NCBI GenBank assembly: GCA_964576115.1
Contig: CAZNUA010000002.1
Coordinates: 85,789-149,788, forward strand
Length of the DNA: 64,000 nucleotides
Origin: an uncultured Gemmatimonadota bacterium
Lineage (GTDB): Bacteria > Blakebacterota > Blakebacteria > Blakebacterales > Blakebacteraceae
Direction of reading: 5' to 3'
Part shown: positions 22,966 to 41,635 of the stretch, in pieces
How positions within the stretch are numbered: position 1 is the stretch's first letter
How the letters are laid out: every line of letters starts with the position of its first letter
Notes under the pieces: generated by a model
What the model was told of the DNA's origin: nothing
Databases searched by the model: none
What the model saw: only the letters and a program-made list of their open reading frames with translations
Position numbers and translations under genes: made by a program

Positions 22966-25674
22966 ATGGCAGAACTGCACCGACAGCGAATCGTCCCCGT
23001 GGATATCGAAGAGGAGATGCGCTCCTCGTATATCGACTACTCGATGTCCGTCATCGTGGCCCGGGCCCTGCCCGATGTGCGCGACGGCCTCAAACCGGTC
23101 CACCGGCGCATCCTGTACGGTATGCGCGAACTCGGCCTGCAACCGAACCGGGCCTACCGCAAGAGCGCCCGCCTGGTCGGTGACGTGCTGGGTAAGTACC
23201 ACCCCCACGGCGACTCGGCGGTCTACGATTCGATGGTCCGCATGGCCCAGGATTTCTCGTTGCGTTATCCCCTGGTCGACGGGCAGGGCAACTTCGGATC
23301 GATCGACGGCGACTCGGCCGCGGCGATGCGCTATACCGAGTGCCGCATGGCCCGGATCGCAGCCGAGATGCTGCACGATCTCGACAAGGACACGGTCGAC
23401 TGGAATCCCAACTTCGACGACACCCTCACCGAACCGGAGGTTCTGCCGACCACGATACCCAATCTGCTTCTCAACGGGGCTTCGGGAATCGCAGTCGGCA
23501 TGGCCACCAATATCCCGCCGCACAATCTGGGTGAGGTGGTCGGTGGCCTGATTCATCTCATCGACCATCCCGAGGCCCTGGTCGAGGATCTGATGGAGTT
23601 CATCACCGGTCCGGATTTCCCGACCGGCGGAATCATTTACGGCCGCGACGGCATCCGCGAGGCCTACCGCACCGGGCGGGGCAAGATCATCGTCCGGGCC
23701 CGGATCCATACCGAACCCGTCCGTGACCGGGAGCGGCTCGTCGTCACCGAGATTCCCTACCAGGTCAACAAGTCCCGGCTGCTGGAGAAGATCGCCGAAC
23801 TGGTACGGGACAAAAAAATCGAAGGGATCTCGGATCTGCGCGACGAGTCGGACCGGGAGGGAATGCGCATCGTCATCGAGCTCAAGCGCGACGCGTACAC
23901 CGAGGTCATCATCAACACTCTCTACAAACTCACCTACCTGCAGAGCACGTTCGGGGTGATCAATCTGGCCCTGGTCAACGGTCAGCCGCGGGAACTGAAT
24001 CTGAAAGAGACCCTGAAGGCCTTCCTCGATTTTCGACACGAGGTGGTCGAGCGGCGAACCCGGTTCGACCTGGCCCAGGCCGAGGCCAGAGCCCACATCC
24101 TCGAAGGATTGCGGATCTGTGTCGACAACATCGATGAGATCGTGGCCATCATCAAGAAGGCGAAGGATCCCGAAACGGCGAAAAAGCAGCTGCGCAAGAC
24201 CTTCGATCTTACCGAGGTACAGGCCCAGGCGATTCTCGACATGCGCCTGGCCCGGCTGACCGGTCTGGAGCGGAAAAAGATCGAAGATGAATACCGCGAG
24301 CTGATCGAGAAAATCGCGCACTACAAGGAGGTCCTGGCCAACAAGGGCCTGCGGATGGCGATCGTGCGGGACGAACTCTCCGAGCTCGTCGGAACCTACG
24401 GCGATGAGCGACGAACCGAGATCATCGACAGTGCCGGAGATTTTTCGATCGAGGACCTCATCGCCGAAGAGGATATGGTCATCACCATCTCGCACCAGGG
24501 ATATATCAAGCGGATACCGGTCTCGACCTACCGCCGGCAGGGCCGGGGAGGTAAGGGGATCCGCGGGGTGGGGACCAAAGAGGAGGACTTCATCGAGCGC
24601 CTCTTCATCGCCTCGACCCACTCCTACATCCTCTTTTTCACCGACCGGGGCAAGTGCTACTGGCTCAAGGTCTACGACATTCCCCAGGGCGGACGACTGG
24701 CCAAGGGACGGCCCATCATCAACCTCATCCAGATCGAGAAAGAGGAAACAGTCCGGGCGGTGGTGCCGGTCAGAACCTTCGAGGAGGATCAGTTCGTCGT
24801 CTTCGCCACCCGCCAGGGACTGGTGAAGAAAACGCCGCTGCCCGACTACGGGCATCCTCGCCGTGACGGGATCATCGCCATCGATGTCGTCGAGGGCGAT
24901 TCCCTGGTCGATGCCGATCTGACTGACGGGACCTGCGACATTCTCATCGGCACCCGCAAGGGCAAGGCGATCAGATTCTCCGAGGACGACGTCCGGCCGA
25001 TGGGTCGAAACACACGCGGAGTGAAAGGGATCACCCTGGCCAAGGAGGGAGACGCGGTAGTGGGGATGGTCGTGGTGCGGCGCGAGGGGTGCATCCTGAC
25101 CGTTTCGGAACTCGGCTACGGCAAGCGCTCGCAGATCAGTGATTACCCTGTCCAGAAGCGGGGCGGGCAGGGTGTGCTCACCATGAAGGAATGCGAGCGG
25201 AACGGCGATGTCCTTTCCCTGCGCGAAGTCGTCGATGAAGACGAACTCATGATCATCACCCGCCGGGGGCAGATTATCCGCCAGGCCGCCTCGGGAGTCA
25301 GCGTCATGGGCCGCAACACCCAGGGGGTACGGGTGATGAACATGAGCGAGGGGGATCTGGTCGTGGATGTCACCCGGGTGGCCGAAGAGGATATCAACGG
25401 CACCGCCCTGTCGGACCCGCCGGCTTCGGAGAGCGGCGCGGAGTCGGGAGGTAAACCGGAGACTCCCGAGACGGCAGAATCGGGGGATAACGAGAAGGCG
25501 CCGGAAAAGCCGGTCGCGAAGAAAACAGTAACGAAAAAGAGTGCCGCAAAGAAGACGGGGGCGAAAAAAACGGCCGCGAAGAAGGCCGCGTCAAAAAAGA
25601 CGGCGTCGAAAAAGACATCCGGCAGGAAAACGACGTCGAAAAAGAGCTCCGCGAAGAAACAAACCCGGGAATGA
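22966..25674 (+). CDS. gyrA: DNA gyrase subunit A with acidic then Lys-rich C-terminal tail
   Basis: [22 protein letters not shown], GyrA-box QGRGGKG and pinwheel blades. Confidence 0.98.
25513..25662 (+). repeat. ten degenerate 15-bp units encoding xxKK(T/S) pentapeptides in the GyrA tail
   Basis: [50 protein letters not shown]. Confidence 0.9.
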
Positions 25675-25811
25675 ACCGGGGCGGAACGCACGAACCGCTC
25701 CGGCCGTGATACCCACAGAAGATGTTGACAGACCGGGGGAAAAAGTCCCCGATTGCGCCCCAGGCCCCGTATTCAGGACATTCCCGGACATTTCTCACCC
25801 CGTAGTGCTGG

Positions 25812-25820
25812 TGTGGATAA
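25812..25820. promoter_or_regulatory. perfect DnaA box downstream of gyrA
   Basis: TGTGGATAA, with degenerate boxes nearby (ATACCCACA 25709, TGTTGACAG 25723). Confidence 0.55.
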
Positions 25821-25951
25821 ACGTCCCGACTCCGCAGTGTCAATCGTCCGGCAGACGTGTCCTGTTGACACGGCGGAAAGAGTATGTATGTTGCAGACTG
25901 ACACGACAAGCATGTCCCGTGTCCTTTTTGAACACCACTCAAGGGTGTGTG

Positions 25952-25964
25952 TAAGGGATTGACA
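25952..25964. promoter_or_regulatory. candidate IHF site
   Basis: TAAGGGATTGACA versus YAANNNNYTGATW (1 mismatch), between the putative UAS and the sigma54 site. Confidence 0.55.
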
Positions 25965-26002
25965 GATAATGAGTTGCCTGTATTCGCTGCTGTCTGATAC
26001 GT

Positions 26003-26019
26003 TTGGCACGACATGTGCT
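26003..26019 (+). promoter_or_regulatory. sigma54 (-24/-12) promoter
   Basis: TTGGCACGACATGTGCT; GG at 26005-6 and GC at 26017-8 give the exact spacing; one mismatch to TGGCACG-N4-TTGCW. Confidence 0.75.
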
Positions 26020-26099
26020 CCATTTCTTGGTGTGCCCAGTCGAGGGCCCTCCTGTCGGGGGGTACTCGCAGAAACTACGGGCGGTAAAGGAGCACAACC

Positions 26100-27815
26100 A
26101 TGAAAAGAGCAGCGATCTTGAGTGCGGTCCTGATCCTGGCCCTGCCCGGTCAGACGGCAGGAGCGGCGCCGGCTTTGACCGAAGGTGATTCCGGGGAAGC
26201 TGTCCATCGCCAGGAACCGCGCAAGGTCCGGGGCGACTACCGCATTTCCAGCGAAGATATCCTGCGCAGCGACCTGGTGGTTGAAGAGGGACATCTGACG
26301 GTCGACGGCGAGATCCGCGGCTGGGTGGTGGTCAAGGGAGGCGATGCCATCATCCGGGGAACGGTAGAAGGCGATGTGGTGGTCATCTACGGCAACGTCA
26401 GGGTGTTCGGGGACGGGCTGATCCAGGGCGATGCGGTCAGTATCGAGGGTGATGTCGAAATCCGGGATGCGGGGGTAGTGACCGGCAGCAACATCAGTAC
26501 CAGCCTCTCTGGTCTGCGCCGGCAGGGCAGTGATGTGAGCTGGGCCCGCATTGTCAGGCGGGCCGGCTTCGAGGACCTCACCCGGGAACCGTCCGAATAC
26601 GTACGGCGCGGCTGGGAGCGGGATTGGGAAACCGATCGTCGTGACTGGTACCGGTCCCGCCGCTGGAGTTCCTATGATTTTCTGGAAGACGGGAATTTCC
26701 CGCTCGGCTATTTCACGTACAACCGGGTCGACGGGCTGACCTTCCAGGGCCAGATTTTCAACAGCATGAGGGATTGGGGACCGGCGGCGACCAGCTTCTA
26801 CGGGGGCGTGGGCTATGCTTTCTCGAGCCGAAGGGTCTACTACCGGCTGGGGCTGAATCGCTACTGGCTGCCGGGCTCGCCGCTCGAGATCGGCGGTCTG
26901 GCCTACCGTCAGCTCGAAACAGAGGACGACTGGTACCTGTTTACGAACGAGAACGACCTCTACGCTCTATTCGCCCGGTACGACTTCCGGGATTACTACC
27001 TGGTGGACGGGTGGCAGGTGTACGCACGCTTCCGTCCCATGCGGGAACTGCGGGTGGGGGCCAGGTATGCCCAGGAAAGTGAGGAAACGGTCGAGAAGGT
27101 GACCGATTGGGGGATCTTCAACCGGGACCGGCTCTTCCGCGAGAACGAGTGGGTGACGGCCTGGGATCCCGACCCGTCGCTGAGAGGGTACGATCCGGCC
27201 GACACCGGTGACCTGCACCGCATCGCGTACTTCCTGCGTTACGATCTGGGCCGGCGGCTCTTTCGAACCCGAGGCTTCGGTTTGAGCCTGGACGCCGAAC
27301 TCGAGAAGGTCGAACACCAGGGTCTCGGAAGCGGCGGCGTCTTCTCCTATGACCGTCTCACGGCCATGCTCAGGGGACATCTCAGTCTGAGCCGGATGGA
27401 CCACCTCAGTTTCCGGGTCCGGGCTGCTTCGGCCAAGGTCGAGGATGGTTTCACCATCCCGGTCCAGCACCGGTACTACCTGGGAGGAATCGGTTCGCTG
27501 CGGGGTTACGGCCTGAAGGAATTCACCGGCGATCGGCTCTTCCTGGGCACGGTCGAGTACACCCTGGGCGGGGATTACTGGTCCCCCTTCTTCGATGACT
27601 GGGCCCTCTTCTTCTTCTTCGACTACGGGCTGGCCTGGAACGCGGCGGCCGGGACCGGGCTCTGGACCGATCTCTACCCCGAGGAAGGCATGCGTAGCGC
27701 TGGAGCCGGTATCGCCCCCTTCGGGAGCGAGTTCATGAAGGTCGAGTTCGCCAAGCCGCTCGACGGTGAGACGAAGGACGTCCACTATTACATTCGCCTG
27801 ATGGTCGAGTTTTAG
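26100..27815 (+). CDS. outer membrane protein: bactofilin-like beta-helix repeats fused to an Omp85-like barrel
   Basis: Signal peptide; GxVxGDVVV repeats; YNRVDG; LGGIGSLRGY; C-terminal Phe; SD AAGGAG. Confidence 0.75.
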   Translation: MKRAAILSAVLILALPGQTAGAAPALTEGDSGEAVHRQEPRKVRGDYRISSEDILRSDLVVEEGHLTVDGEIRGWVVVKGGDAIIRGTVEGDVVVIYGNVRVFGDGLIQGDAVSIEGDVEIRDAGVVTGSNISTSLSGLRRQGSDVSWARIVRRAGFEDLTREPSEYVRRGWERDWETDRRDWYRSRRWSSYDFLEDGNFPLGYFTYNRVDGLTFQGQIFNSMRDWGPAATSFYGGVGYAFSSRRVYYRLGLNRYWLPGSPLEIGGLAYRQLETEDDWYLFTNENDLYALFARYDFRDYYLVDGWQVYARFRPMRELRVGARYAQESEETVEKVTDWGIFNRDRLFRENEWVTAWDPDPSLRGYDPADTGDLHRIAYFLRYDLGRRLFRTRGFGLSLDAELEKVEHQGLGSGGVFSYDRLTAMLRGHLSLSRMDHLSFRVRAASAKVEDGFTIPVQHRYYLGGIGSLRGYGLKEFTGDRLFLGTVEYTLGGDYWSPFFDDWALFFFFDYGLAWNAAAGTGLWTDLYPEEGMRSAGAGIAPFGSEFMKVEFAKPLDGETKDVHYYIRLMVEF

Positions 27816-27827
27816 GAGGGTCGCGAG

Positions 27828-28694
27828 ATGACCGATACTCAGCGACAGACCCTGAAAGTCATGGCGGTGACCCTCCTGCTGCTCCTGGTGGCCAGCTCCC
27901 TGCTCTTTGCCGCCCAGCAGGAGCAGGAGCTGACCAAAACTTTCATCCCCGACGCCTCGCGGCCCATGACGGCCCGGATCAGAGGTGATGCCGCCGAGAT
28001 TACCATCAAGGGCCTTCCTCACGGCCGGGAGGGCCGGGCCCGCTACCGCTACGACGGCGAGAAATTCTCGGGCCTGCTGGAATGGGATGCCGAGCGGAAC
28101 CTCTTCGAAGCCGAGGTCGATATGGGAGGCCTGGATTGGGATAGCGATGACGATCATCACCAGTCCGAACTCGAGATCCTGCTCCCACCCCGGGCCCCGG
28201 TCGATCTCGACCTCGATCTCAAGTTCGGGGTTGTTGAACTGGACGGGGAGGAACTCGATCTGAGCGGGTGCGCGATCGATCTCTGGGCGGGGGAGCTCAA
28301 TGCCGATTTCCCGGTCCCGCTCACAAACGTCATGCAGCGCATGACGATCGATGTCAAAATGGGTGAGCTGAACGTGAGGGGACTCGGCAACGTGCCCTTC
28401 GATGTGCTCGACATGAACGGCTTCGCCGGCACCACGCTACTCGACTTTTCCGGATCGGTGGCGATGCGGCGCGAAGTGCGGGTGGACCTGGAGATGGGCG
28501 AGATCGAGATCATCGTACCGGCGGGAATGAAGGTCGAAGCCCGGATTGCCAAGTTCATCGCCGAACTGGATCTGCCTTCGGGCTGGCGGCGGGACGGCCG
28601 GTATGCCTCGACGCCCGACACAAGACGGGGGGACGGGGAACTGTACCTGGATATCCGCGGCGGATTGGGTACGATCACAATAAGAGAACGATAG
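27828..28694 (+). CDS. exported beta-solenoid protein (LiaF-C/toast-rack/DUF4097-like)
   Basis: Signal peptide; repeated xDxxxGExxx units; terminal LDIRGGLGTITIR. Confidence 0.65.
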   Translation: MTDTQRQTLKVMAVTLLLLLVASSLLFAAQQEQELTKTFIPDASRPMTARIRGDAAEITIKGLPHGREGRARYRYDGEKFSGLLEWDAERNLFEAEVDMGGLDWDSDDDHHQSELEILLPPRAPVDLDLDLKFGVVELDGEELDLSGCAIDLWAGELNADFPVPLTNVMQRMTIDVKMGELNVRGLGNVPFDVLDMNGFAGTTLLDFSGSVAMRREVRVDLEMGEIEIIVPAGMKVEARIAKFIAELDLPSGWRRDGRYASTPDTRRGDGELYLDIRGGLGTITIRER

Positions 28695-28715
28695 GTAGAG
28701 AATCATTCGACGCAC

Positions 28716-29411
28716 GTGGGGAGTCGAGTGGGACGCACGCTGGCACTGATATTTCTGGGGCTTCTGGTTCATCCCGGCAGCCTCAAGGCTCAGGGGGAGC
28801 CGGGCGAACCGGCCACGCCTTCTCTGACCTTCGGCGAGATATGGATCGAAGAAGAGGGCCTGCATTTCGCGGTCACGGCCGAGGGTTTCTTCAATGAGGA
28901 GGTCAGGCGGACGATCGAGCAGGGGGGCACGACCGCCCTCGACTTTTCTGTCGAGCTCTACCGCAAGCGTCGCAACTGGTTCGACGCCCGCGTGCGCACC
29001 CTCGACGTTCTTCCCTTCCGGATCTCTTACGACAGCTTTGCCCGACAGTACCTCGTTCTGAGTACCGACATCCGTCTGCGCACCGACGAATACGACCAGG
29101 CCGTGGACCAGTGTACCCGGCTGGCCGATGTCTTTGTCGGGACGCTCAGCGACCTCAGACTCGATCCCGAAGACACCTACTATCTGATTGCCCGGGTACG
29201 CTTTCAGCCGATGGCGGTCGAGACGGTCGACGAAATACGGAACTGGGTCGGCGGTTCGCAGGATCGCAGCCGCCGGCGTGAAACGGGGCAGGAGGGGGGC
29301 GGTGTCGGTTCGCGCCTGGCTCGGGTCCTGGTGAGTGCGGCCGGTTTCGGCGAGACCGAGCTCGAGGCAGAGAGTCCGCATTTCCGCCCCGCCGATCTGC
29401 CGGAGCGTTGA
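28716..29411 (+). CDS. DUF4390-like periplasmic protein
   Basis: Signal peptide; LYRKRRNWFD and ISYDSFARQYLV; directly upstream of an NtrY-type kinase. Confidence 0.75.
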   Translation: MGSRVGRTLALIFLGLLVHPGSLKAQGEPGEPATPSLTFGEIWIEEEGLHFAVTAEGFFNEEVRRTIEQGGTTALDFSVELYRKRRNWFDARVRTLDVLPFRISYDSFARQYLVLSTDIRLRTDEYDQAVDQCTRLADVFVGTLSDLRLDPEDTYYLIARVRFQPMAVETVDEIRNWVGGSQDRSRRRETGQEGGGVGSRLARVLVSAAGFGETELEAESPHFRPADLPER

Positions 29412-29414
29412 GCG

Positions 29415-31085
29415 ATGTCGGGCACCCCCCTGCCGCCGGTCTATACCTTCATCACCTGGACGGCGGTCCTGGCTGTCATTATCACCGCCGTCGTCATCTA
29501 CCGCTGGCGCCGGCCCGACCGCTACAGCCGGTTCCAGCTCAAACTCACCCTGGCCCTGATCCTCTTTGTACTGGTGCCGGCCGTACCCCTGGTGTATGTC
29601 GCCGGAACGGCCGTGGACTGGCTTCGCGGCCTGGTTGTCACCCTGCCCGTCGATGACGCTCTGGAGCAGGGGCTCGGGGTGGTCCGAGACAACCTGAGCA
29701 GTGAAGAAGCGCGGCTTGAGGCCTGGAAAGAGGAACTGCTCGGCGAGGGCGCCGGACCGGCCGCGGGACGGCCCGTACCGCCGCCGGACTTCACGCTGCA
29801 CTGGGTCCGAACCCGGGAGGGGACCTGGGAACTCACCGAACCGGTCTTCCACCGGGCCCGCCGACCCGGAGTACCCGATTCCCTGCTCGATCCCCCACCC
29901 GATCCCCGCCGCGAGTACCCGCAGATCCTGGCTGATGTCGAGTTCACCCTCGAAGAAAGGATTCTCTTCACCTACCGCTCAACCGGGGTCTACATGCTCC
30001 TCTTCCAGCCCCCCGGCACCGAAGACATTCACGCCGCCGGGACCTGGATCAGTCCCGAGATGGTGGAAGCCCGCTACGCCCTGGAGGAGGGACTCGACCG
30101 GTTCAGGGATGTCACCCGGCTGGGAGGGCAGGGAATGCGGGAATTCGTCTGGACCCTGGCCAGCCTCTGGATGGTGCTGCTCGCTCTGGGATCGTTCTTC
30201 GCCGCCCGGCAGCTGGCCCGGGGGGTAAGCGGTCCGGTACTCGAGCTGGCCGAGGGCATGGAAGCCGTGGCGGCCGGAGATCTGACAACCCGGGTCGACA
30301 CCAACAGCCGTGACGAGATGCAGATCCTGGTGAAAAGCTTCAACACCATGACCGACCAGCTCCGCGAAGCCCGGGAGCGGATCATCACAGCCGAGAAACA
30401 GGCGGCCTGGCGCGATGTTGCCCGCCGGATCGCGCACGAGATCAAGAACCCGCTCACACCCATCCAGATCGGTCTGCACCGGGTCAGGAGCCGGATCGAG
30501 GCCGACGAACGCTTTGCCTCCGATGACGCCATTCGCGAGTCTTTTCAGACCATGGCCGAAGAGGTCGAAGCCCTGCGGCGGATGGCGGCGGCTTTCAGCG
30601 AATTTGCCCAGCTTCCGCAGCCGACAATGGCTCCGGGTGACATGGAGGGAGTGGTTCGCGGTGCGGCGGCGCTCTTCTCCGAGGGGCCGACGCGGGTTCG
30701 CCTGGAGACGATTGTGCGGGGACAGATTCCGCCGGTGGAAATGGATGCCGACCTGGTCAAGAGAGCCCTGATCAACCTGATCAAGAACGCGGTCGAAAGT
30801 GTCGAGGAAGCGGGAGGTGGCGGGGTCGATGTCACGCTGGGCATGGAGGGAGCCGAACTCGTGCTCACGGTCCGTGACAGCGGTGTCGGCTTCGAGCCCG
30901 AGGAAGCCGACCGGCTCTTCGATCCGGATTATTCCACCAAGGCCAGGGGTATGGGTCTGGGACTCTCGATGGTCGCCCGGATCGTCGTCGATCACTCCTG
31001 GCGGATCGAAGCGGTCAGCGAGGGAAACGGTCGTGGGGCCGAAATCCGAATCACGATACCGTGTGAGGAGAGGGACGGAGGATGA
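29415..31085 (+). CDS. NtrY-like sensor histidine kinase (TM, HAMP, HisKA, HATPase)
   Basis: AAWRDVARRIAHEIKNPLTPI, NLIKNA, DSGVG and GMGLGL. Confidence 0.93.
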   Translation: MSGTPLPPVYTFITWTAVLAVIITAVVIYRWRRPDRYSRFQLKLTLALILFVLVPAVPLVYVAGTAVDWLRGLVVTLPVDDALEQGLGVVRDNLSSEEARLEAWKEELLGEGAGPAAGRPVPPPDFTLHWVRTREGTWELTEPVFHRARRPGVPDSLLDPPPDPRREYPQILADVEFTLEERILFTYRSTGVYMLLFQPPGTEDIHAAGTWISPEMVEARYALEEGLDRFRDVTRLGGQGMREFVWTLASLWMVLLALGSFFAARQLARGVSGPVLELAEGMEAVAAGDLTTRVDTNSRDEMQILVKSFNTMTDQLREARERIITAEKQAAWRDVARRIAHEIKNPLTPIQIGLHRVRSRIEADERFASDDAIRESFQTMAEEVEALRRMAAAFSEFAQLPQPTMAPGDMEGVVRGAAALFSEGPTRVRLETIVRGQIPPVEMDADLVKRALINLIKNAVESVEEAGGGGVDVTLGMEGAELVLTVRDSGVGFEPEEADRLFDPDYSTKARGMGLGLSMVARIVVDHSWRIEAVSEGNGRGAEIRITIPCEERDGG

Positions 31086-32434
31086 GCGGCCGGATCCTGA
31101 TCATTGATGACGAGGGCGGCATCAGAACCAGCCTTGGCGGGCTGCTTGCGGATGAGGGCTACGAAGTCGTCACGGCTGCTTCGGGTGAAGAGGGTCTGGA
31201 AACCGCCGACCGGAGCCGGCCCGATGTGATCCTGCTCGACATGATCCTGGGAGGAATCGACGGCCTCGAGGTCCTGGCCCGGTTCAAGGAAAGAACCTGC
31301 CGGGCTCCGATCATCATGATGAGCGGGCAGGCGACGCTGGAGGCTGCAGTGCAGGCGACCCGGCTCGGCGCGCTCAACTTTCTGGACAAGCCCCTGGATC
31401 CCGGACGCGTTCTGGCCGAGGTGGCGGCGGGGATGGAGATCGCCCGGCTCCGGGCCGAGAACGAAAGCCTGCGGGCCGAAACCGGAGAGACGCCCCGGAT
31501 GGTGGGTGAATCACGGGCCATGCGGCGCCTGCGCGAGCAGATCCGGAAGGTCGCTCCCACCAACGCCTCGGTTCTCATCCTGGGCGCCAGCGGCACCGGG
31601 AAGGAACTCGTGGCCCGGGCTGTACACGCTCTCAGCAACCGGACGGAGGAGGCCTTTGTCCAGGTCAATTGCGCGGCCATCCCCCGCGAACTCATCGAAA
31701 GCGAACTCTTCGGTTACGAACGGGGGGCCTTCACTGGTGCTGCCGGCCGTCACCGGGGCCGATTCGAGCAGGCTGACGGAGGCAGCATTTTCCTCGATGA
31801 AGTCGCCGACACCAGCGCCGAAGCCCAGGCCCGACTCCTGCGCGTTCTCCAGGAAGGAGAAGTCCAGCGTCTGGGGGGCGAGGAAATCCTGCATGTCGAT
31901 GTGCGGGTCATTGCCGCGACAAACCGCGAACTCGGCCGGCTCATCGAGACCGGCGAATTTCGCGAGGATCTTTTTTACCGCCTGAATGTCATGCCCCTCG
32001 AGGTGCCTATGCTCGACGAGCGGACCGAGGATATCCCGGATCTGGCCCGGGAGTTCATCACTCTTTTCGCCCGTCGGAATGACCGTCGACCGATCGATCT
32101 GCGGCCCGATGCCCTGGCTGTTCTGCAGGACAGCACGTGGCCCGGGAACGTCCGGCAGTTCCGGAACACCATCGAACGACTGATGATCCTGTACGAGGGC
32201 GAGGAAATCGGCGCCGCCGAAGTCCGGGATGTCGTCGAGGGCGTACCCGCATCGGACGATGTCCCTCCTGCCGATGGCGAAGCGAGCCTGCGCGATCTGA
32301 TCGAGGGCTATGAAGAGCGGCTCCTACGCCGGGAACTCGAAGCCGCCGGAGGGGTCATTTCGCGCGTTGCCGAGCGCTTGAACACCGATCGGGCAAATCT
32401 CTACCGGAAACTGAAACGATACGGTTTGAAATGA
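31082..32434 (+). CDS. NtrX/NtrC-family sigma54-dependent response regulator
   Basis: REC domain (IDDE, LLDM); Walker A GASGTGKE; ESELFG; GAFTGA; FLDEV; WPGNVR; Fis-type HTH. Confidence 0.95.
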   Translation: MSGRILIIDDEGGIRTSLGGLLADEGYEVVTAASGEEGLETADRSRPDVILLDMILGGIDGLEVLARFKERTCRAPIIMMSGQATLEAAVQATRLGALNFLDKPLDPGRVLAEVAAGMEIARLRAENESLRAETGETPRMVGESRAMRRLREQIRKVAPTNASVLILGASGTGKELVARAVHALSNRTEEAFVQVNCAAIPRELIESELFGYERGAFTGAAGRHRGRFEQADGGSIFLDEVADTSAEAQARLLRVLQEGEVQRLGGEEILHVDVRVIAATNRELGRLIETGEFREDLFYRLNVMPLEVPMLDERTEDIPDLAREFITLFARRNDRRPIDLRPDALAVLQDSTWPGNVRQFRNTIERLMILYEGEEIGAAEVRDVVEGVPASDDVPPADGEASLRDLIEGYEERLLRRELEAAGGVISRVAERLNTDRANLYRKLKRYGLK

Positions 32435-35400
32435 CCGGCCGCAGGGCCGAGACCCACCCGCCCCTGCTCGGACCGTGGTCCGAGGCGGTCCTGCGCACGA
32501 AGCTGGCTCGGGATCTGCTCGCCCGACTGCGTGAAGGCTCTCGGGCGACCCTGCCGGCGCTACCCGGTTCGCTGGGCACCGTACTGCTGGCGAGCGCCGC
32601 TGACAGACTCGAACGTCCCCTGCTGGCCGTTTTCCCCGAGAGCGATGAGGCCGCCGCCGCCGCGCTCGATTTCGCCACCCTCCTCGGCGAGGAAAGGGTT
32701 GCCTTTCTGCCGCCGATCCCCGCCGCGGCCTATGAGGAATTCACGCCCGACCCGACTCTGATCGTCGAACGACATGACGCCCTGCGCCGCCTGCTGGTTC
32801 CGGGCGCGGCGGCCGGGGTGGTGGTCGCTCCGATCCGGGCGCTGCTCCTGCCGGTTCCGTCTCCCGCAGACCTGCGGCAGTTGTATCTCGAGCTCGCCGT
32901 CGGACGGCGATGTGCTTTGACCTGGCTCGTCGGCTGGCTGGCGGCGGCCGGGTACGAGCGGGAACCGATGGCCCAGAGACCGGGGGAATTTGCGGTCCGG
33001 GGAGGACTGGTGGATATCGTTCCCCCCGGACGGACCCGCGGTCTGCGGATCGAGTACTGGGGCGATGAGATCGAGAGTATCCGCGAATACAGTCTGCGCG
33101 ACCAGCGGTCGATCGGCGGCCAGGGTCAGGCGGAGGTGCCCGCCGCGGCACCCTTCATCATCGACGATGAAACGCGGGTGCGCGCCGCGGGTCGGACGGC
33201 GGAGTTCGCTCCCGACCTGATTGAAAAAACGCCGCTGGGAGCGGTCGGAGCCGAACGCGGCCGTCCTGACGGCCTTTTCTGGTACTACCCCTTCTTTCTG
33301 GAACGGGCAGGGCGGGTAACCGAGCTTCTTCCCGAATCTACCCTCGTGGCCCTCTGGGAACCGGAGCGGATCGAACCGGTCGTGAAAGGCACCGCGGCCG
33401 AGTTCGAGGCGCGGTACGAGGCCAGGGAGGATGCCGGCGGGTGGCCATCCCCCGCCGAACTCGAGCCCGGGGCAGGATTCCTCGACCGGCTCGGCGGGGC
33501 CTATGCCGGAGCCCGCCTGCCGCTGGTGGCACCGCCGGCGGAGGCGATCCTGACCACCAATGCCCGCCCGGCGGGTACCTTCAGCGGTGATTTTCCGGCC
33601 CTGCGCGAAGAGCTTGCCGCCCTGGGCCGGACGGGAATCAGGACCGTCATCCTGGTCGAGGACAGCGGCCAGAAAAAGCGCCTGACCGACCTTCTGATAC
33701 CGGAATCCACCGGACAGAACCCGCCCGAGATCGTGATCGGACAGCTCGAACGCGGCTTTACCTGGCCCGAGGCCGCCCTGGCGGTCTGGCCCGATCACGA
33801 ACTCTTCGGCCGGCCGCGTCGTCCGGCCGTCCGAAGGAGTTTTCCGGGCGAGGCGATCGGGACCTGGCAGGTTCTCTCGGTCGGCGATCATGTGGTGCAC
33901 GTCGACCACGGGATCGGCCGTTTCGAGGGACTCCGCACGATGGAAGTCGACGAACGTGAACACGAACTCCTCGAACTGACCTACGCCGGCAACGACCGTC
34001 TCCTGGTACCGGTCGACCAGCTCTACCGGGTGCGGCGCTATGCCGGAACCGACCCTGATTCGCCGCCGGCCCTTAATACCCTGGGTACGGCCGGGTGGGA
34101 GCGGACGGTAGAGCGAGCCCGGACCGATCTCCTCGAGATGGCGTCCGAGCTGGCCAGGATCTACGCCGTCCGCGAAACCGCGGAGCGCCCGGGTTGGCCG
34201 GCCGACGACCTGATGATGGAGGAACTCGAAGCCGGTTTCCCCTGGACCGAAACTCCCGATCAGGCCCGGGCGGTCGAGGCGGTCAAGCGGGACCTGGAGG
34301 CTGACCGGCCCATGGATCGCCTGATCTGCGGTGATGTGGGGTACGGGAAGACTGAAGTGGCGATCAGGGCGGCACTCAAAGTCATCGAGGGGGGCGGGCA
34401 GGTCGCGGTCCTGGTACCGACCACCGTTCTGGCCCAGCAGCACCTGGAAACCTTCCGCTCGCGGCTCGAGCGGGTGCCGGTCAGAATCGAAATGCTCAGC
34501 CGGTTCCGCACCCCCGTTCAGCAGCGAGGCACCCTGGAGGGGCTTGCTGCCGGCACCACCGATCTGGTGATCGGCACCCATCGGCTGCTTTCGCCCGATG
34601 TCGACTTCGCCCGGCTTGGATTGATCGTCATCGACGAGGAACACCGCTTCGGTGTCCGGGCCAAGGAGAAACTGCGGGCGCTGCGAGCCCGGGTGGATGT
34701 ACTCAGCATGACGGCCACACCGATTCCACGCACGCTGCACATGTCGCTCTCCGGCCTGCGGGACATTTCGATCATCACGACCCCGCCGGAAGACCGCCTG
34801 CCGGTTCACACCGAGGTCGTGACCTTCGATGAAGAGCTGATCGAAACAGCTATTCGGCGGGAAAGGGAGCGGGGTGGGCAGGTCTTCTTCGTCCATAACC
34901 GGGTCCGGTCGATCGAAGCGGTGGCGCAACTGCTGGCCCGGCTGGTTCCCGAGGCCCGGATCGAGATCGGCCACGGACAGATGAGCGAGCGCCGCCTCGA
35001 GCGGGTCATGCTGGAATTCACTGCCGGTGCGGTCGACGTGCTGGTCTCGACCATGATCATCGAGTCGGGGCTCGATCTGCCCAATGCGAACACCCTCATC
35101 GTCAACCGGGCCGACCGTCTCGGTCTGGCTCAGCTCTACCAGCTGCGCGGTCGGGTGGGCCGTTCCAATCTGCGGGCCCGGGCCTATTTCATGGTGCCCC
35201 GCGGGCGCACCCTCGGCCCCGATGCCCGCAGTCGCCTGCGGGCCCTGCGCGAATATACCGACCTCGGGGCCGGACTGGAGCTGGCCCTGAGAGATCTCGA
35301 GATCCGGGGGACGGGCAACCTCCTCGGACCGCAGCAGCACGGGCATATCGCCGCCGTGGGTCTGGATCTGTACCAGCAGATGCTCGACGAGGCGATCGCC

Positions 35401-35940
35401 GAAATACGCGGCAGCCCCGGCACCACGAGGATCCCGCCCCGGGTCGAGATCGATGCCGAAGCTCTGCTCCCCGAAAGCTATATTCCCGTTCCCTCGGCCC
35501 GGATCGCCCTCTATCGCCGGGCGGTCGAGGCCCGCACCCTCGACGAGCTGGGAGAGGTGGCGAACGAACTGACCGACCGTTTCGGACCGCCGCCGCCTGC
35601 GGCCCGGGCCTTTCTCGAGGTCGCCGTGCTGCGCTGGATTGGCACGGAACTCGGTCTCGATTCGCTGGTCGTAGAGAGGAACCGGCTTCTGGCCCGGTTC
35701 CGTACCGGGGTCACACTCGATCCCGACCAGTGGGAAGAGCTGCTGGAGCGCCTGGGTGAGGCGGCCCGATTCCGCGGTCGGGATCCTCTGACCTGTGAGC
35801 TGGCGCTGACGTCGACCGGGGCCGCCGAGCGCCTCGCCGAGGCCAGAAACTTCTTGCTGACGGAAGACGAAGCGGAATACGTTACGGAATTCATGTCGGG
35901 AAGCAAATCAGCCGAGGGGGCGCAACATGGGCAGAGGTGA
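32431..35940 (+). CDS. mfd: transcription-repair coupling factor
   Basis: VRGGLVD, CarD-like VVHVDHGIG, GDVGYGKT, DEEHRFG, TATPIPRT and QLRGRVGR. Confidence 0.97.
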   Translation: MTGRRAETHPPLLGPWSEAVLRTKLARDLLARLREGSRATLPALPGSLGTVLLASAADRLERPLLAVFPESDEAAAAALDFATLLGEERVAFLPPIPAAAYEEFTPDPTLIVERHDALRRLLVPGAAAGVVVAPIRALLLPVPSPADLRQLYLELAVGRRCALTWLVGWLAAAGYEREPMAQRPGEFAVRGGLVDIVPPGRTRGLRIEYWGDEIESIREYSLRDQRSIGGQGQAEVPAAAPFIIDDETRVRAAGRTAEFAPDLIEKTPLGAVGAERGRPDGLFWYYPFFLERAGRVTELLPESTLVALWEPERIEPVVKGTAAEFEARYEAREDAGGWPSPAELEPGAGFLDRLGGAYAGARLPLVAPPAEAILTTNARPAGTFSGDFPALREELAALGRTGIRTVILVEDSGQKKRLTDLLIPESTGQNPPEIVIGQLERGFTWPEAALAVWPDHELFGRPRRPAVRRSFPGEAIGTWQVLSVGDHVVHVDHGIGRFEGLRTMEVDEREHELLELTYAGNDRLLVPVDQLYRVRRYAGTDPDSPPALNTLGTAGWERTVERARTDLLEMASELARIYAVRETAERPGWPADDLMMEELEAGFPWTETPDQARAVEAVKRDLEADRPMDRLICGDVGYGKTEVAIRAALKVIEGGGQVAVLVPTTVLAQQHLETFRSRLERVPVRIEMLSRFRTPVQQRGTLEGLAAGTTDLVIGTHRLLSPDVDFARLGLIVIDEEHRFGVRAKEKLRALRARVDVLSMTATPIPRTLHMSLSGLRDISIITTPPEDRLPVHTEVVTFDEELIETAIRRERERGGQVFFVHNRVRSIEAVAQLLARLVPEARIEIGHGQMSERRLERVMLEFTAGAVDVLVSTMIIESGLDLPNANTLIVNRADRLGLAQLYQLRGRVGRSNLRARAYFMVPRGRTLGPDARSRLRALREYTDLGAGLELALRDLEIRGTGNLLGPQQHGHIAAVGLDLYQQMLDEAIAEIRGSPGTTRIPPRVEIDAEALLPESYIPVPSARIALYRRAVEARTLDELGEVANELTDRFGPPPPAARAFLEVAVLRWIGTELGLDSLVVERNRLLARFRTGVTLDPDQWEELLERLGEAARFRGRDPLTCELALTSTGAAERLAEARNFLLTEDEAEYVTEFMSGSKSAEGAQHGQR

Positions 35941-37678
35941 GGGAGCGTACAGTCGGGGCAGGGCCGCTCTGCTGGCAATCCTCGGTCTGGGAACGGCCGT
36001 GGTCGCAGCCTGTTCGGGATCCGATTGGGATGAAGGGGGAGTTGTTGCGCGAGTCAACGGTCGTGAGATTACCATGGCACGTTTTCAGGAGTTCTACATG
36101 CCACCGCAGACCCCGATCCGGGGTGCCGAAGAGGTCATGCAGGAACTCAACGAGCGTCTCGACCAACTGATAGGATATGTACTCATCGAAGAGGCCGGCC
36201 GTGAAATAGGCCTTCTGAAAGACGAGGGATACCGCCAGCGGAAGCACCTTTTCGAGATCGACATCCTCAACCGTCTCTACCAGCAGAAGATGATCGCCGA
36301 GCGGGTTACGGTCGACGATCGAGACGTCCAGGAGATCCTCGATCGCTCGGCCAACGAACGGCATTTCCAGCACATCCTCGTGGTCACTGCCGAAGCCGCC
36401 GAGGACGTCAAAGCGCGCCTGCTGGCCGGCGACGACTGGGGTGATCTGGCGGTGGAATACTCCCACGACGACGAGGCGGCCATCAACCGGGGTGACCTTG
36501 GCTGGCTCACTTGGGGCCGTATGCCCCTCTCGCTCTATCCCGAGCTGCAGGAGGTTGCTTTCCGGATCCCGGAGGGCTCGTGGGAGGGCCCGATCAGGCA
36601 GGGCAGCGAGTACCATTTCATCAAGGTTCTCGAGGACCGGACCAGGGCCGCGGGCTCGGCCGGTGAAGAATGGGCCGCAGCTCGAGCCCTCGTCTATGAT
36701 ACAAATCTGCGCCAGGCCGAGCAGTCTTTCACCGACGAGGTCTGGCGCGAAGGGGAGTGTGCCCTGAATGCCGATCAGTTCATCTGGTTGCTCGAACAGA
36801 TTCAGGAATCCTTTACAACCCAGCCGGCCTTCAACGCCGTACCCGTCCTCACTCGGGAGGACAACCGCCGGGTCATCATCTCATCGAGGCACGGGGACTA
36901 TACCGCCCGCGTTCTGCTCGACCGACTGGCCCTGCTCAATCCTCAGGAACGCGACAACGCGGTGACGGTCGACGAGTGGCGAAGCCGGTTCATCGGTTGG
37001 GTAATGAACGATCGTGTCGCCGAGATGGCCCGGGACGAGAAGCTCCACCGGACGCGTGAATTCAGCATCCGGATGCGCAACTACGTCGAGAGCTACCTCT
37101 ACTCGACCATGGTGAACAATATCCGGTCCAGCGTGGGGGCACCCACCGACGAGCAGGTCGAGGCCTACTACAACAACCATCCCGCGGAATTCAACCTGCC
37201 CGAACGGCGCCGTTTCGTCGAGATCCTCGTCGCCACCCGGGCCGAAGCCGATGATATCCTGCAGCAGGCCCGGGCCGGCACCGATATGCGCCAGCTGGCG
37301 TACCACAATACCCTCCGGGAAGGATTCCGCGAGAACTTCGGACAGTTCCATCCGATCAGTCGCGGGGAATTCGGCGCTCTGGGTGAAGCCGTTTTCGCAA
37401 CCCCGCTGGACGAGATCGGTCCGATCGTCGAGACTCCTCTGGGTTTCAGTGTTTTTCAGGTTACAGCGATCTATCCTCCCGAACAGCGTCAACTCGAAGA
37501 TATCCGGGATAATCTCGCCCGCCAGCTCCACAATATGGCGCGAACCCAGGTCATGGAGTCCTTCACCGAAAATGCCTGGCGGGAAGCGAGGATCACCAAG
37601 GATATGGACCACCTGCGTGAATATGCTGTGCAGGTCGCCCGGGCGACCAGGGCAGCGGCGGACTCGACCGGTGGGTAA
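35927..37678 (+). CDS. parvulin-type peptidyl-prolyl isomerase lipoprotein (two rotamase domains)
   Basis: Lipobox VAAC; HILV, LAVEYS and RGDLGW; second domain with ETPLGF. Confidence 0.85.
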   Translation: MGRGEGAYSRGRAALLAILGLGTAVVAACSGSDWDEGGVVARVNGREITMARFQEFYMPPQTPIRGAEEVMQELNERLDQLIGYVLIEEAGREIGLLKDEGYRQRKHLFEIDILNRLYQQKMIAERVTVDDRDVQEILDRSANERHFQHILVVTAEAAEDVKARLLAGDDWGDLAVEYSHDDEAAINRGDLGWLTWGRMPLSLYPELQEVAFRIPEGSWEGPIRQGSEYHFIKVLEDRTRAAGSAGEEWAAARALVYDTNLRQAEQSFTDEVWREGECALNADQFIWLLEQIQESFTTQPAFNAVPVLTREDNRRVIISSRHGDYTARVLLDRLALLNPQERDNAVTVDEWRSRFIGWVMNDRVAEMARDEKLHRTREFSIRMRNYVESYLYSTMVNNIRSSVGAPTDEQVEAYYNNHPAEFNLPERRRFVEILVATRAEADDILQQARAGTDMRQLAYHNTLREGFRENFGQFHPISRGEFGALGEAVFATPLDEIGPIVETPLGFSVFQVTAIYPPEQRQLEDIRDNLARQLHNMARTQVMESFTENAWREARITKDMDHLREYAVQVARATRAAADSTGG

Positions 37679-37708
37679 ATTCGCCACAGAGAACGGGTGG
37701 AATCCAAC

Positions 37709-38566
37709 ATGACACCCCGACAACCCTGCCTCAGCCTGGCCGGCGGCATTACGATCGCTCTACTGATCACAGGCTGCACCCCAGCCGAGACCGAACCGGT
37801 CATCGCCCAGGTGGGCGATGTCACCCTGACCCTTTCGACACTCCATGAACTGGTTCCGGAACAGACTCTGAGCCGGGCGACCAGGGACGAGTTCACCGCC
37901 TATGTCAACCAGTGGGTCCGGCAGGAGCTTCTCTGCCAGGCGGCCGAGGAGATGGGTTACGGGACCGACGCCCGGGTGGAGCAGCGTGTGATCGAAGCCC
38001 GCCGCAGTATCATGGTCGACACCTTTCTCGAGGACGAGCTCGATCTGACACCCTTTCTTTCGGAGGAAGAGATCACCTCCTACTATCAGAGCAATATCGA
38101 GAGCTTCGTCCGTGAAGAAGAAGAAGTCCGGGCGGTTCTGCTCTGGTTCGACACCGAAGCGGAGGCTGCCCGGGTGCGGTCCGCCGTCGCGGCCGGGAAC
38201 ACACCGGCCGAAGTCGCCGCCGACACCTCGTTTCACATCGTCGCCGCCGATCTCGATCTCGACTACATGACCCGGCACGAACTCGGCGAAGAGCTCGGCG
38301 ACATCGTCTTCGCCCAGCGGGCGGGAACCCTCTCCCAGCCGCTGCGGGTCGGGGACAGCGTCGTCATCATCCAGATCCTCGACCGGCAGGAAGCCGGCCA
38401 GACGCGGACTCTCGAGGAGGTGCGGGACGAGATCGTCATGCGGCAGACATCCAATCTGTGGGATATGAAACTGGACGAGTTGCTGACCCGACTGCTCGAA
38501 GAGGCCGACGTGTCTATCAATATCCAGGCTGGATACGAAGCCCTGGGACGGGGGCGGGAAAGATGA
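37709..38566 (+). CDS. PrsA/parvulin-like foldase lipoprotein
   Basis: Lipobox ITGC; VIAQVGD; degenerate rotamase domain. Confidence 0.75.
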   Translation: MTPRQPCLSLAGGITIALLITGCTPAETEPVIAQVGDVTLTLSTLHELVPEQTLSRATRDEFTAYVNQWVRQELLCQAAEEMGYGTDARVEQRVIEARRSIMVDTFLEDELDLTPFLSEEEITSYYQSNIESFVREEEEVRAVLLWFDTEAEAARVRSAVAAGNTPAEVAADTSFHIVAADLDLDYMTRHELGEELGDIVFAQRAGTLSQPLRVGDSVVIIQILDRQEAGQTRTLEEVRDEIVMRQTSNLWDMKLDELLTRLLEEADVSINIQAGYEALGRGRER

Positions 38567-39876
38567 ACAGAACGGCGAAAGAACTCTTTCTGGCAGTGGT
38601 TCTCCTGGCGGCCCTGACTCCTGCGGGCCGGGCTCAGCAGCTGCAGGGGGAACGGTTTGCCCTGGACTCGATCGCGGCGATCGTGGGGTCGGAGATCATT
38701 CTGCGAAGCGAGATCGATCTGCAGCTCTATATCGAAACCCAGAGCCGCGGTATCGCTCTCGAGACTCTTTCCGAAGCGCAGATCGACACCATGCGCCGGG
38801 GCATCCTCGACAACCTCATCAACCAGAAAGTCATTGTGGCCCGGGCCGTGCGCGACTCGATCGTGGTTTCCCGCAGCGAGGTGGATACGGCCGTCGATCA
38901 GTGGCTGGCACAGATCAAGCAGAGCATGGGAGGTGAGGCGGCTTTCCAGGCTCAGCTGGCAGCCGAGAATATGACCGAACGGGATCTGCGCGAACGCCGC
39001 TGGGAAATGGCTCAGGACGAGCTGCTCCGCAGTCGGCTCTTCCAGCAGATCGGTATCCGGATGAGTCCGGTCTCGCGCCGGGAGGGAGAAGCCTATCTGC
39101 AGGAGAACGCCGCTGCTCTGATGCCGTTGCGGATGATCTTCCTGGCCGCCCCGCCCGAAGCAGAACTCGATTCCCTGGCCCATGCCCGGGCTCGCGAAGT
39201 GCGTCGCCGGATTGTCGAAGGAGGGGAAGAATTCGGGGCCATCGCCCGGACCGAATCGGCTGACGGGGGGAGCGGTGCGGCCGGGGGCGACCTGGGCGAA
39301 GCACCCCGCGGCACATATGTGGCAACGATCGACTCCACTGTCTGGAATACCCCCGTCGGCGAAGTATCGGCACCCGTCCGCAGCCAGTTCGGGTGGCACC
39401 TGGTGCAGGTCACCGCCCGCGACAGCACCGCTGCCCGCGCCCGCCACATCCTGATCGGTCTCCAGGCCGACCAGGCCCTGGCCAGCAGCATCGACGAAGT
39501 CGAGCGGGCCCTGGCCGAGGGGGAATCCTTCGGCACGCTCATCACGCGCCACAGCCAGGCCCCGGAAAGCGAGCAGAACGAAGGTTTTTTCGCCGTCCTG
39601 CCCGAGCAGACCACCCCGCAGGAGAGCAATCTGCCGGCCGAATGGATCAACGAGCTGAGACAGTTGATCCCGGGTGATTGGGCCGGACCGTGGGAGTCTC
39701 CCGAAGGAGTGTTCTTCTTCGAGCGCCTGCCCATGGATGGGGATACCATCCAGCTCATCCTGCGGGTCGATTTCGCCCGGGTCGAAGCCTACATCCAGCG
39801 CCAGCGGCAGATCGCCCAGATCGAGGAATTCGTCTCCGAACTTCGCAGCGAGACCTATATCGAGATCAAACCGTGA
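38563..39876 (+). CDS. surA: SurA-like periplasmic chaperone/PPIase
   Basis: DSIAAIVGSEIILRSE N-terminus; GGDLG, SQFGWHLV and ARHILI; precedes pdxA. Confidence 0.8.
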   Translation: MNRTAKELFLAVVLLAALTPAGRAQQLQGERFALDSIAAIVGSEIILRSEIDLQLYIETQSRGIALETLSEAQIDTMRRGILDNLINQKVIVARAVRDSIVVSRSEVDTAVDQWLAQIKQSMGGEAAFQAQLAAENMTERDLRERRWEMAQDELLRSRLFQQIGIRMSPVSRREGEAYLQENAAALMPLRMIFLAAPPEAELDSLAHARAREVRRRIVEGGEEFGAIARTESADGGSGAAGGDLGEAPRGTYVATIDSTVWNTPVGEVSAPVRSQFGWHLVQVTARDSTAARARHILIGLQADQALASSIDEVERALAEGESFGTLITRHSQAPESEQNEGFFAVLPEQTTPQESNLPAEWINELRQLIPGDWAGPWESPEGVFFFERLPMDGDTIQLILRVDFARVEAYIQRQRQIAQIEEFVSELRSETYIEIKP

Positions 39877-40871: not shown

Positions 40872-40961
40872 GACCCGCTTCCCGGTTCGCCTGTCGGCGG
40901 ACCGGATTCCTTTATAGTATCATCGGGTTACTGTCTCCCCACCCCCGGGCGGGAGAAGGTC

Positions 40962-41635
<674 letters not shown>

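Follow-up and report, generated by a model that had tools for sequence, protein, structure and literature searches.

We analysed a 64,000-nt stretch (the window) of contig CAZNUA010000002.1 from an uncultured bacterium of the GTDB phylum Blakebacterota (assembly GCA_964576115.1), concentrating on a block of five genes at window positions 26100-32434. We think it fairly probable that the block as a whole is a sigma-54-dependent envelope operon, in which a three-component system resembling PlrP-PlrS-PlrR has an operon for an outer-membrane barrel and a toastrack protein as its conserved direct target and, in the host's own phylum, activates itself. The five-gene system probably monitors or remodels the cell envelope. 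This proposal starts from what was observed directly, that is, the gene content, the spacing, the folds, the linkage across phyla and a conserved promoter and palindrome. The host genome is a metagenome-assembled genome (MAG) of 144 contigs, and its GTDB phylum consists of 10 species genomes, whose members go under Gemmatimonadota, Zixiibacteriota or ‘bacterium’ in public databases. All genomes compared were MAGs, the genes of relatives were called by simple rules for open reading frames (ORFs), and related genomes are not independent of each other.

The five genes form a single tight block on the plus strand. The ORF list placed them where the original prediction had put them, with gaps of 12, 21 and 3 bp between the first four and an overlap of 4 bp between genes 4 and 5. 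We found no terminator-like site between the genes in a sequence scan and no sigma-70-like or sigma-54-like match inside the block, where an internal promoter might have separated the first two genes from the others. The products had been described as an outer-membrane fusion protein, an exported beta-solenoid, a DUF4390-like protein, an NtrY-like kinase and a sigma-54 regulator, and these descriptions agreed with our results, except that the name NtrY fits the kinase only loosely.

Gene 1 (26100-27815, 571 residues) encodes a signal peptide, a bactofilin-like beta-helix (about residues 40-160) and an Omp85/DUF5686-like barrel (about residues 200-571). It is an Omp85-superfamily barrel without POTRA domains, joined to a bactofilin-like N-terminal domain. 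The Pfam Omp85 model (PF01103) matched with 38.2 bits (cut-off 24) and DUF5686 matched below threshold. All 32 members collected for the family matched both Omp85 and DUF5686, and 12 matched Bactofilin; none matched POTRA at E <= 0.01, while the same tool detected a genuine POTRA-Omp85 protein in locus L090. A profile of the orthologues compared with the PDB reached TamA at E 4.4e-5 and BamA at 0.025. The evidence for the N-terminal domain came from a weak profile match of residues 69-160 to the bactofilin structure 6RIA (E 0.17) and from the Bactofilin model (PF04519), which did not match the gene of the window at E <= 0.01 and matched the best family member at 2.2e-13. An ESM Atlas model of residues 40-142 resembled bactofilin with a template modelling (TM) score of 0.68 and also resembled autotransporter passengers, which we take as a lead only. 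With the Omp85 superfamily (BamA, TamA, TpsB and the type Vd protein PlpD), gene 1 shares a C-terminal Omp85 barrel preceded by a soluble domain; unlike BamA, TamA and TpsB, its family has no POTRA, and the N-terminal domain is bactofilin-like, CBM48-like or absent. After Omp85, the nearest Pfam model is DUF5686, which is uncharacterised. Two side observations concern this gene. Residues 72-137 of the beta-helix share 41% identity with part of another gene on contig C2 (72254-72451), about 13 kb before the window, and the gene 1 match of one relative (L013 2736-4292, the same as L027 8001-9557) is split over three frames by a frameshift or an assembly error.

Gene 2 (27828-28694, 288 residues) encodes an N-terminal signal or anchor helix followed by an exported beta-helix of the toastrack type (LiaF-C/DUF4097). 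The Pfam LiaF-like_C model scored 26.1 bits, just below its cut-off of 29, and 27 of the 28 family members matched it. The AlphaFold model (predicted local distance difference test, pLDDT, 91.9) has a single helix at residues 3-29 and is all-beta thereafter. Foldseek matched the model to the toastrack prototype 4QRK (E 3.9e-14) and to 4OPW (2.9e-4), as well as to 3PET, 3LYC and 3JX8; 4QRK and 4OPW are named as examples in the phage shock protein (PSP) survey that defined the toastrack domain (PMC11237479). No Pfam match to the four-helix LiaI-LiaF-TM domain was obtained for gene 2, in keeping with the one N-terminal helix of its model. The survey ties the toastrack to Lia and Psp systems, where it accompanies envelope-stress two-component systems, and argues that the domain is generally intracellular; gene 2, in contrast, carries an export signal or anchor. 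Neither ‘Omp85’ nor ‘bactofilin’ was found in the main text of the survey. Export signals were read at the N-termini of the products of genes 1, 2 and 3.

Gene 3 (28716-29411, 231 residues) encodes an exported, PlrP-like DUF4390 protein (PF14334, 55.1 bits against a cut-off of 27) with a signal-peptide-like N-terminus, and is separated from the kinase gene by the 3-bp gap. A conserved C-terminal extension (residues ~178-231; 29250-29408) carries the motif GVGSRLAR..SAAGFGE past the Pfam domain, and this motif is common to the DUF4390 proteins of the host's own phylum, of Gemmatimonadota and of KSB1-like genomes. Mature PlrP is described as almost wholly DUF4390 domain (PMC13001219).

Gene 4 (29415-31085, 556 residues) encodes a membrane-bound histidine kinase with three transmembrane helices, a periplasmic domain of about 180 residues (65-243), HAMP (267-318), HisKA (332-400) and HATPase_c. 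Pfam gave no PAS match, and since HAMP abuts HisKA there is no room for one, so we rejected the identification of gene 4 as NtrY while retaining the HAMP histidine kinase. Among the best 25 of 78 NCBIfam matches there was no NtrY model, the top match being LIC_11548 at 198 bits (cut-off 750). The sensor domain is restricted to the lineage, being found in 17 proteins among 5.8 billion, all at least 44% identical. Its model (pLDDT 81.3) shows a helix, a beta-sheet and a helix. Foldseek found nothing at E <= 0.001, the best matches being a PAS domain (0.018), CHASE4 (0.051) and dCache (0.065). VIA-align, whose list was dominated by long helices, gave the WalK sensor domain (Z 6.3, root-mean-square deviation 5.4 over 109 aligned residues) and LuxQ (Z 6.0), both in the noise range.

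Gene 5 (31082-32434, 450 residues) encodes a sigma-54 enhancer-binding protein with a Response_reg (REC) domain, an AAA+ domain (Sigma54_activat, 237.2 bits) with GAFTGA in its translation, and HTH_8. NtrX was the top NCBIfam model at 424.8 bits, below its cut-off of 600, followed by NtrC at 414.8. NtrX-type regulators in general are not known to carry GAFTGA. The genome has one rpoN (Sigma54_DBD, 212.6 bits) and 15 strong activator genes. In an unrooted tree of 30 activators from a quick search, the nine that adjoin distant barrel genes, seven orthologues of gene 5 and one paralogue from the genome formed a clade (Shimodaira-Hasegawa approximate likelihood-ratio test, SH-aLRT, 98), and 13 of the other 14 activators of the genome fell outside it.

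The 425-bp spacer between gyrA and gene 1 contains the elements that would connect the regulator with the first two genes. A sigma-54 promoter of the -24/-12 type, TGGCACGACATGTGCT (26004-26019, plus strand; TGGCAC-N5-GTGCT), precedes gene 1 by about 95 nt. All 10 loci of the host's own phylum have the motif upstream of gene 1, and its GG and GC columns are invariant in the alignment. Genome-wide there are 56 such motifs (both strands, 2 x 3.96 Mb), and the one before gene 1 is the only one on this contig. The palindrome GTGTCCTGTTGACAC (25857-25871; GTGTC-N5-GACAC), a candidate upstream activator site, is located 147 nt upstream of the -24 element, and in 9 of the 10 loci a palindrome of the form GTGT-N5-9-ACAC precedes the sigma-54 motif by 115-147 nt. 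An alignment of nine upstream regions revealed a second conserved box (25889-25908, consensus TGTTGCAGAnTGACAACA), which could be a second activator site. A ribosome-binding site AAGGAG (26087-26092, plus strand) lies 7 nt before the ATG, in columns that are invariant or nearly so. The conserved promoter and palindrome suggest that the output of the module is truly sigma-54-dependent.

A sigma-70-like match, TTGACA-16-TATGTT (25865-25892, plus strand), overlaps the palindrome. It is the only one in 25500-41500, and one found against 2.1 expected from shuffles is not significant alone. The TTGACA is conserved in the upstream alignment and the -10 hexamer is not; the match may be a basal promoter or merely part of a binding site. 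The spacer also holds a DnaA-box-like word, TGTGGATAA (25812-25820), with one or two copies in 8 of the 10 loci, which could point to DnaA-dependent regulation or be left over from an origin region close to gyrBA. We searched the genome for the combination of palindrome and sigma-54 motif and recovered one other pair, with GTGTCCGAATGACAC about 150 nt upstream of a motif on contig C15 (L093; around 69167, minus strand). The motif precedes a gene for an S-adenosylmethionine (SAM) hydroxide adenosyltransferase and an Asp/Glu racemase gene, and the site is a possible second target of the gene 5 activator.

Within the phylum, gene 2 was present in all 10 genomes, compared with 1 of 31 other genomes sampled, and DUF4390 was present in nine, the miss being a genome in which the relevant contig is only 1616 bp long. 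The order gyrA, genes 1-5, mfd was complete in the six relatives with sufficiently long contigs, and two more contigs end within gene 4. Because the surroundings are equally syntenic, this conservation of the block says little. One relative has some 350 bp inserted between genes 2 and 3, bounded by inverted repeats of about 35 bp (L026 10520-10840), and this insert has the look of a miniature inverted-repeat transposable element.

We examined linkage beyond the phylum by a scan anchored on the barrel, with one genome per species, which gave 55 loci. Forty-six of these were outside the host's own phylum (KSB1, Calditrichota, Zhuqueibacterota, Bacteroidota-type MAGs, Gemmatimonadota and others). 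Among the 39 distant loci whose sequence ran 1.5 kb or more downstream, 21 had a gene of the gene 2 family on the same strand within 3.5 kb after the barrel gene, and among the 40 that reached 1.8 kb or more upstream, 9 had an activator directly upstream of the barrel; the profiles behind both counts include many of the sequences that they score. A tblastn search with the window's own protein recovered 20 of the 21 barrel-toastrack pairs. A relaxed sigma-54 motif, with the first base free, preceded the barrel gene in 18 of the 46 distant loci, and the stricter pattern did so in 11 of 32 tested, against a background of 31 in 1,145,656 positions of those loci, own matches included. The strict palindrome GTGTC-N5-GACAC was found 115-126 nt before the promoter in three loci (L045, L073 and L074), in each case in the stretch separating the barrel gene from an adjoining activator gene, and looser forms occurred in seven more loci (background, 27 loose and 5 strict per 572,828 nt). 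The KSB1-like order is activator, promoter, barrel, toastrack. In L030 and L063 the barrel gene is accompanied by DUF4097 genes and by those for an extracytoplasmic function (ECF) sigma factor and an anti-sigma factor, in L031, L032 and L042 by genes for a VanZ-LamG protein and a hybrid kinase, and in Bacteroidota it stands alone (e.g., L043). In the four distant kinase-activator-barrel loci, a custom profile placed a DUF4390 gene after the barrel gene; three of these scored above the Pfam cut-off (57.4, 38.7 and 34.8 bits) and one below it (20.3 bits).

In Gemmatimonadota, PF14334 was found in 51 of 121 genomes, 29 of them above the cut-off, in a tally that includes one unpublished genome. 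We took 20 of the 23 best-scoring places, leaving out G041 (examined separately), G102 (unpublished) and G072. The barrel gene was directly 5’ of the DUF4390 gene in all 20, the activator 5’ of the barrel in 19 and the kinase 5’ of the activator in 18, the missing genes being accounted for by contig ends. With G041 included, the order kinase-activator-barrel-DUF4390 held in 21 of 21 DUF4390 loci, three of which were cut by contig ends. None of the 20 cassettes had a toastrack gene. The proposed synteny across phyla was borne out for the barrel with DUF4390, kinase and activator; the five families were seen together only in the host's own phylum.

Our proposed mechanism joins these observations as follows. 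The exported DUF4390 protein would modulate the kinase from the periplasm, and the HAMP histidine kinase, through its lineage-specific periplasmic sensor domain, would respond by phosphorylating the REC-AAA+-HTH activator. Phosphorylated gene 5 product would then bind GTGTC-N5-GACAC, about 145 nt upstream of the -24/-12 promoter, and turn on gene 1 (the barrel) and gene 2 (the toastrack). The conserved sigma-54 promoter and palindrome before gene 1 argue that genes 1 and 2 are the regulated output. The five genes presumably form one transcript, and since the sensor genes lie behind genes 1 and 2 in one unit in the host's own phylum, the system would be self-activating, a layout that would follow the logic of the liaIH-GFSR operon of Bacillus. 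The physiological theme would be the state of the outer membrane or envelope.

Several points weigh against this proposal. Operon structure, autoregulation and activator binding are all readings of the sequence, and because a sigma-70-like match overlaps the palindrome, the conserved block there might be a promoter and not a binding site. In Gemmatimonadota, 7 of 19 activator-barrel junctions and 1 of 18 regions upstream of the kinase held the relaxed sigma-54-like motif; the junction is usually tight and such motifs are few, which suggests that the cis-logic is not universal. In three KSB1-like genomes that have activator, barrel and toastrack, the DUF4390 gene is flanked by a glmM-like gene and ppx and has no kinase gene close to it (L089 5966-6691, L090 9503-10198 and L091 9181-9849). 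There it belongs to a conserved string of glmM-like, DUF4390, ppx-gppA, TPR-AhpC and FG-GAP genes, with another Omp85 gene a few genes further on. This distance from the kinase indicates that a DUF4390 protein need not be a kinase accessory. Finally, with no PAS domain in the kinase and no clear PDC-like match for its sensor, the PlrP mechanism is carried over to genes 3 and 4 by analogy.

The same genes could be arranged as a trans-envelope relay, in which the barrel senses the state of the outer membrane and signals through the toastrack protein, the DUF4390 protein or both to the kinase, making genes 1-3 the input rather than the output. We regard this arrangement as rather unlikely. The adjacency of barrel and DUF4390 genes in 21 of 21 Gemmatimonadota loci speaks for it, particularly as the DUF4390 gene there comes after the barrel and not before the kinase, which suggests a partnership of these two proteins. 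The export signals on all three products and the company that toastrack proteins keep with envelope-stress two-component systems (PMC11237479) point the same way. Against these observations stands the conserved promoter, which marks genes 1 and 2 as regulated targets, and no single chain is conserved, the toastrack being missing from 20 of 20 Gemmatimonadota cassettes and DUF4390 from the KSB1-like clusters. When the products of gene 1 (residues 24-571) and gene 2 (34-288) were co-folded from separate alignments, the score was 0.00, which weighs neither way. A relay of this kind would be compatible with the sigma-54-dependent, self-activating operon if it provided feedback, in the way that LiaF acts on LiaS. 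One specific version, which we hold to be unlikely, has the DUF4390 protein held by the barrel or threaded into it and freed when outer-membrane assembly is disturbed; it would then reach the periplasmic domain of the kinase and shift the balance of kinase and phosphatase activity, and the activator would raise the levels of barrel, toastrack and sensor proteins. Such surveillance would amount to RcsF/BamA-like logic built from unrelated parts and common to several little-studied diderm phyla, and it would give DUF4390/PlrP a general mechanism.

Alternatively, the barrel and its neighbour might be an export pair of the two-partner or autotransporter type, with the barrel exporting or displaying its own N-terminal helix, the toastrack protein or both, and with the two-component system setting only the timing. 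An Omp85 barrel beside a beta-helix protein mirrors TpsB/TpsA, ShlB/FhaC was also matched by 3 of the 32 members of the gene 1 family, and the Atlas model of residues 40-136 resembled autotransporter and AIDA passengers (TM score 0.60-0.64; again a lead only). The replacement of the N-terminal domain by CBM48 or its loss in other phyla would be expected of a passenger, and many loci have extra DUF4097 genes after the barrel-toastrack pair. Set against this are the complete lack of POTRA among the 32 members, the lack of a two-partner secretion (TPS) domain in gene 2 by Pfam, and the N-terminus of the toastrack protein, which may be an uncleaved anchor (model helix 3-29); on balance, we find the export pair quite improbable. 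Far less probable still is the view that the neighbourhood has no functional meaning and that genes 1 and 2 are ordinary envelope genes beside a two-component system with other targets, such as nitrogen or redox as in classical NtrYX. It is true that the genes from gyrB to tatD are all co-directional housekeeping genes, among which adjacency within one phylum means little. However, other phyla link the families in differing gene orders, the activators group in a single clade, and promoter and palindrome are conserved; the linkage across phyla in particular argues strongly against a chance association.

We compared the sigma-54-dependent operon with systems already described. In Bordetella, there is genetic evidence that the exported DUF4390 protein PlrP is a third component of PlrSR, which belongs to the NtrYX family; PlrP is proposed to restrain the phosphatase activity of the kinase via its periplasmic PDC domain, and rsmB-plrP-plrSR colocalise in beta- and gamma-proteobacteria (PMC13001219; Wolber et al., J Bacteriol 2026). 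Genes 3-5 share with PlrP-PlrS-PlrR an exported DUF4390 gene directly 5’ of a HAMP kinase with a periplasmic domain, a REC-AAA+-HTH_8 regulator and tight or overlapping junctions. They differ from it in that gene 4 lacks the PAS of PlrS and has a lineage-specific sensor domain, that gene 5 has GAFTGA, that a conserved sigma-54 promoter stands before gene 1, and that an Omp85-like barrel gene and a toastrack gene take the place of rsmB upstream, in a lineage outside the Proteobacteria. The original prediction of an undescribed five-gene module therefore has to be narrowed, as the part made up of DUF4390, kinase and regulator is already described (PMC13001219); its linkage to the other genes is real beyond local chance. 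The statement in the same paper that plrP homologues always colocalise with ntrYX fails in the three KSB1-like genomes.

The liaIH-liaGFSR operon of Bacillus subtilis is likewise a self-activated envelope-stress operon with toastrack genes upstream of kinase and regulator (PMC11237479). It differs in that LiaR is not a sigma-54 activator, that LiaF has a LiaI-LiaF-TM domain with four transmembrane helices, absent from gene 2, and that the Lia system has neither an outer membrane nor a barrel. The arrangement before gene 1 also recalls glnAp1/glnAp2 of Escherichia coli, where a sigma-70-like promoter overlaps NtrC sites about 110-150 nt before the sigma-54 promoter of an operon for a kinase and an activator. 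The likeness lies in this layout; the gene content is unrelated, and the -10 hexamer of the sigma-70-like match is not conserved here. We found no description of a linkage of Omp85/DUF5686 with bactofilin, NtrYX or DUF4390 in the literature searched. Nor did that literature contain a three-component core joined across phyla, in differing gene orders, to an Omp85 barrel without POTRA, or its sigma-54-dependent output with a conserved promoter and palindrome before the barrel gene. The same applies to the insertion of the toastrack gene and the fusion into one probably self-activating operon in the host's own phylum.

The block is flanked upstream by gyrB and gyrA and downstream by mfd, two peptidyl-prolyl isomerase (PPIase) genes, surA, pdxA, ftsE, ftsX, an M23 peptidase gene, holB, metG and tatD. 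The mfd gene (32431-35940, 1169 residues) overlaps gene 5 by 4 bp and is in turn overlapped by the next PPIase gene. The order gene 5, mfd, PPIase is kept throughout the host's own phylum; we did not see it beside the module in other phyla. We found no support for the suggestion that the operon reads through into the SurA/PPIase and FtsEX genes, since mfd and pdxA, omitted from the earlier gene list, intervene, and the SurA and FtsEX genes do not accompany the module in other phyla. An ORF at 39674-41257 (527 residues), the longest at that place and without a Pfam match, is probably spurious, the real gene being pdxA in another frame (39678-40871; PdxA, 280.9 bits), which forms the classical surA-pdxA pair.

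In eight loci of other phyla, a protein of about 570 residues without a Pfam match is encoded downstream of the barrel-toastrack(-DUF4097) genes (L034 11140-12873, L046 10314-12053, L048 5550-7274, L050 6342-8048, L051 11279-12985, L054 10136-11848, L059 4937-6637 and L075 11081-12787). The spurious ORF at 39674-41257 was considered as its homologue and rejected, as the two showed no similarity, and tblastn detected neither a homologue of this protein nor one of the extra DUF4097 gene in the host genome.

The genetic evidence for DUF4390 as a third component of NtrYX-type systems is very recent and comes from Proteobacteria only. The barrel and the sigma-54 output, to which DUF4390 is linked here and in Gemmatimonadota, offer concrete partners for this domain, and regulon prediction and reporter assays could start from the conserved promoter and palindrome. 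The system described here points to an envelope-sensing circuit in phyla without a studied example.

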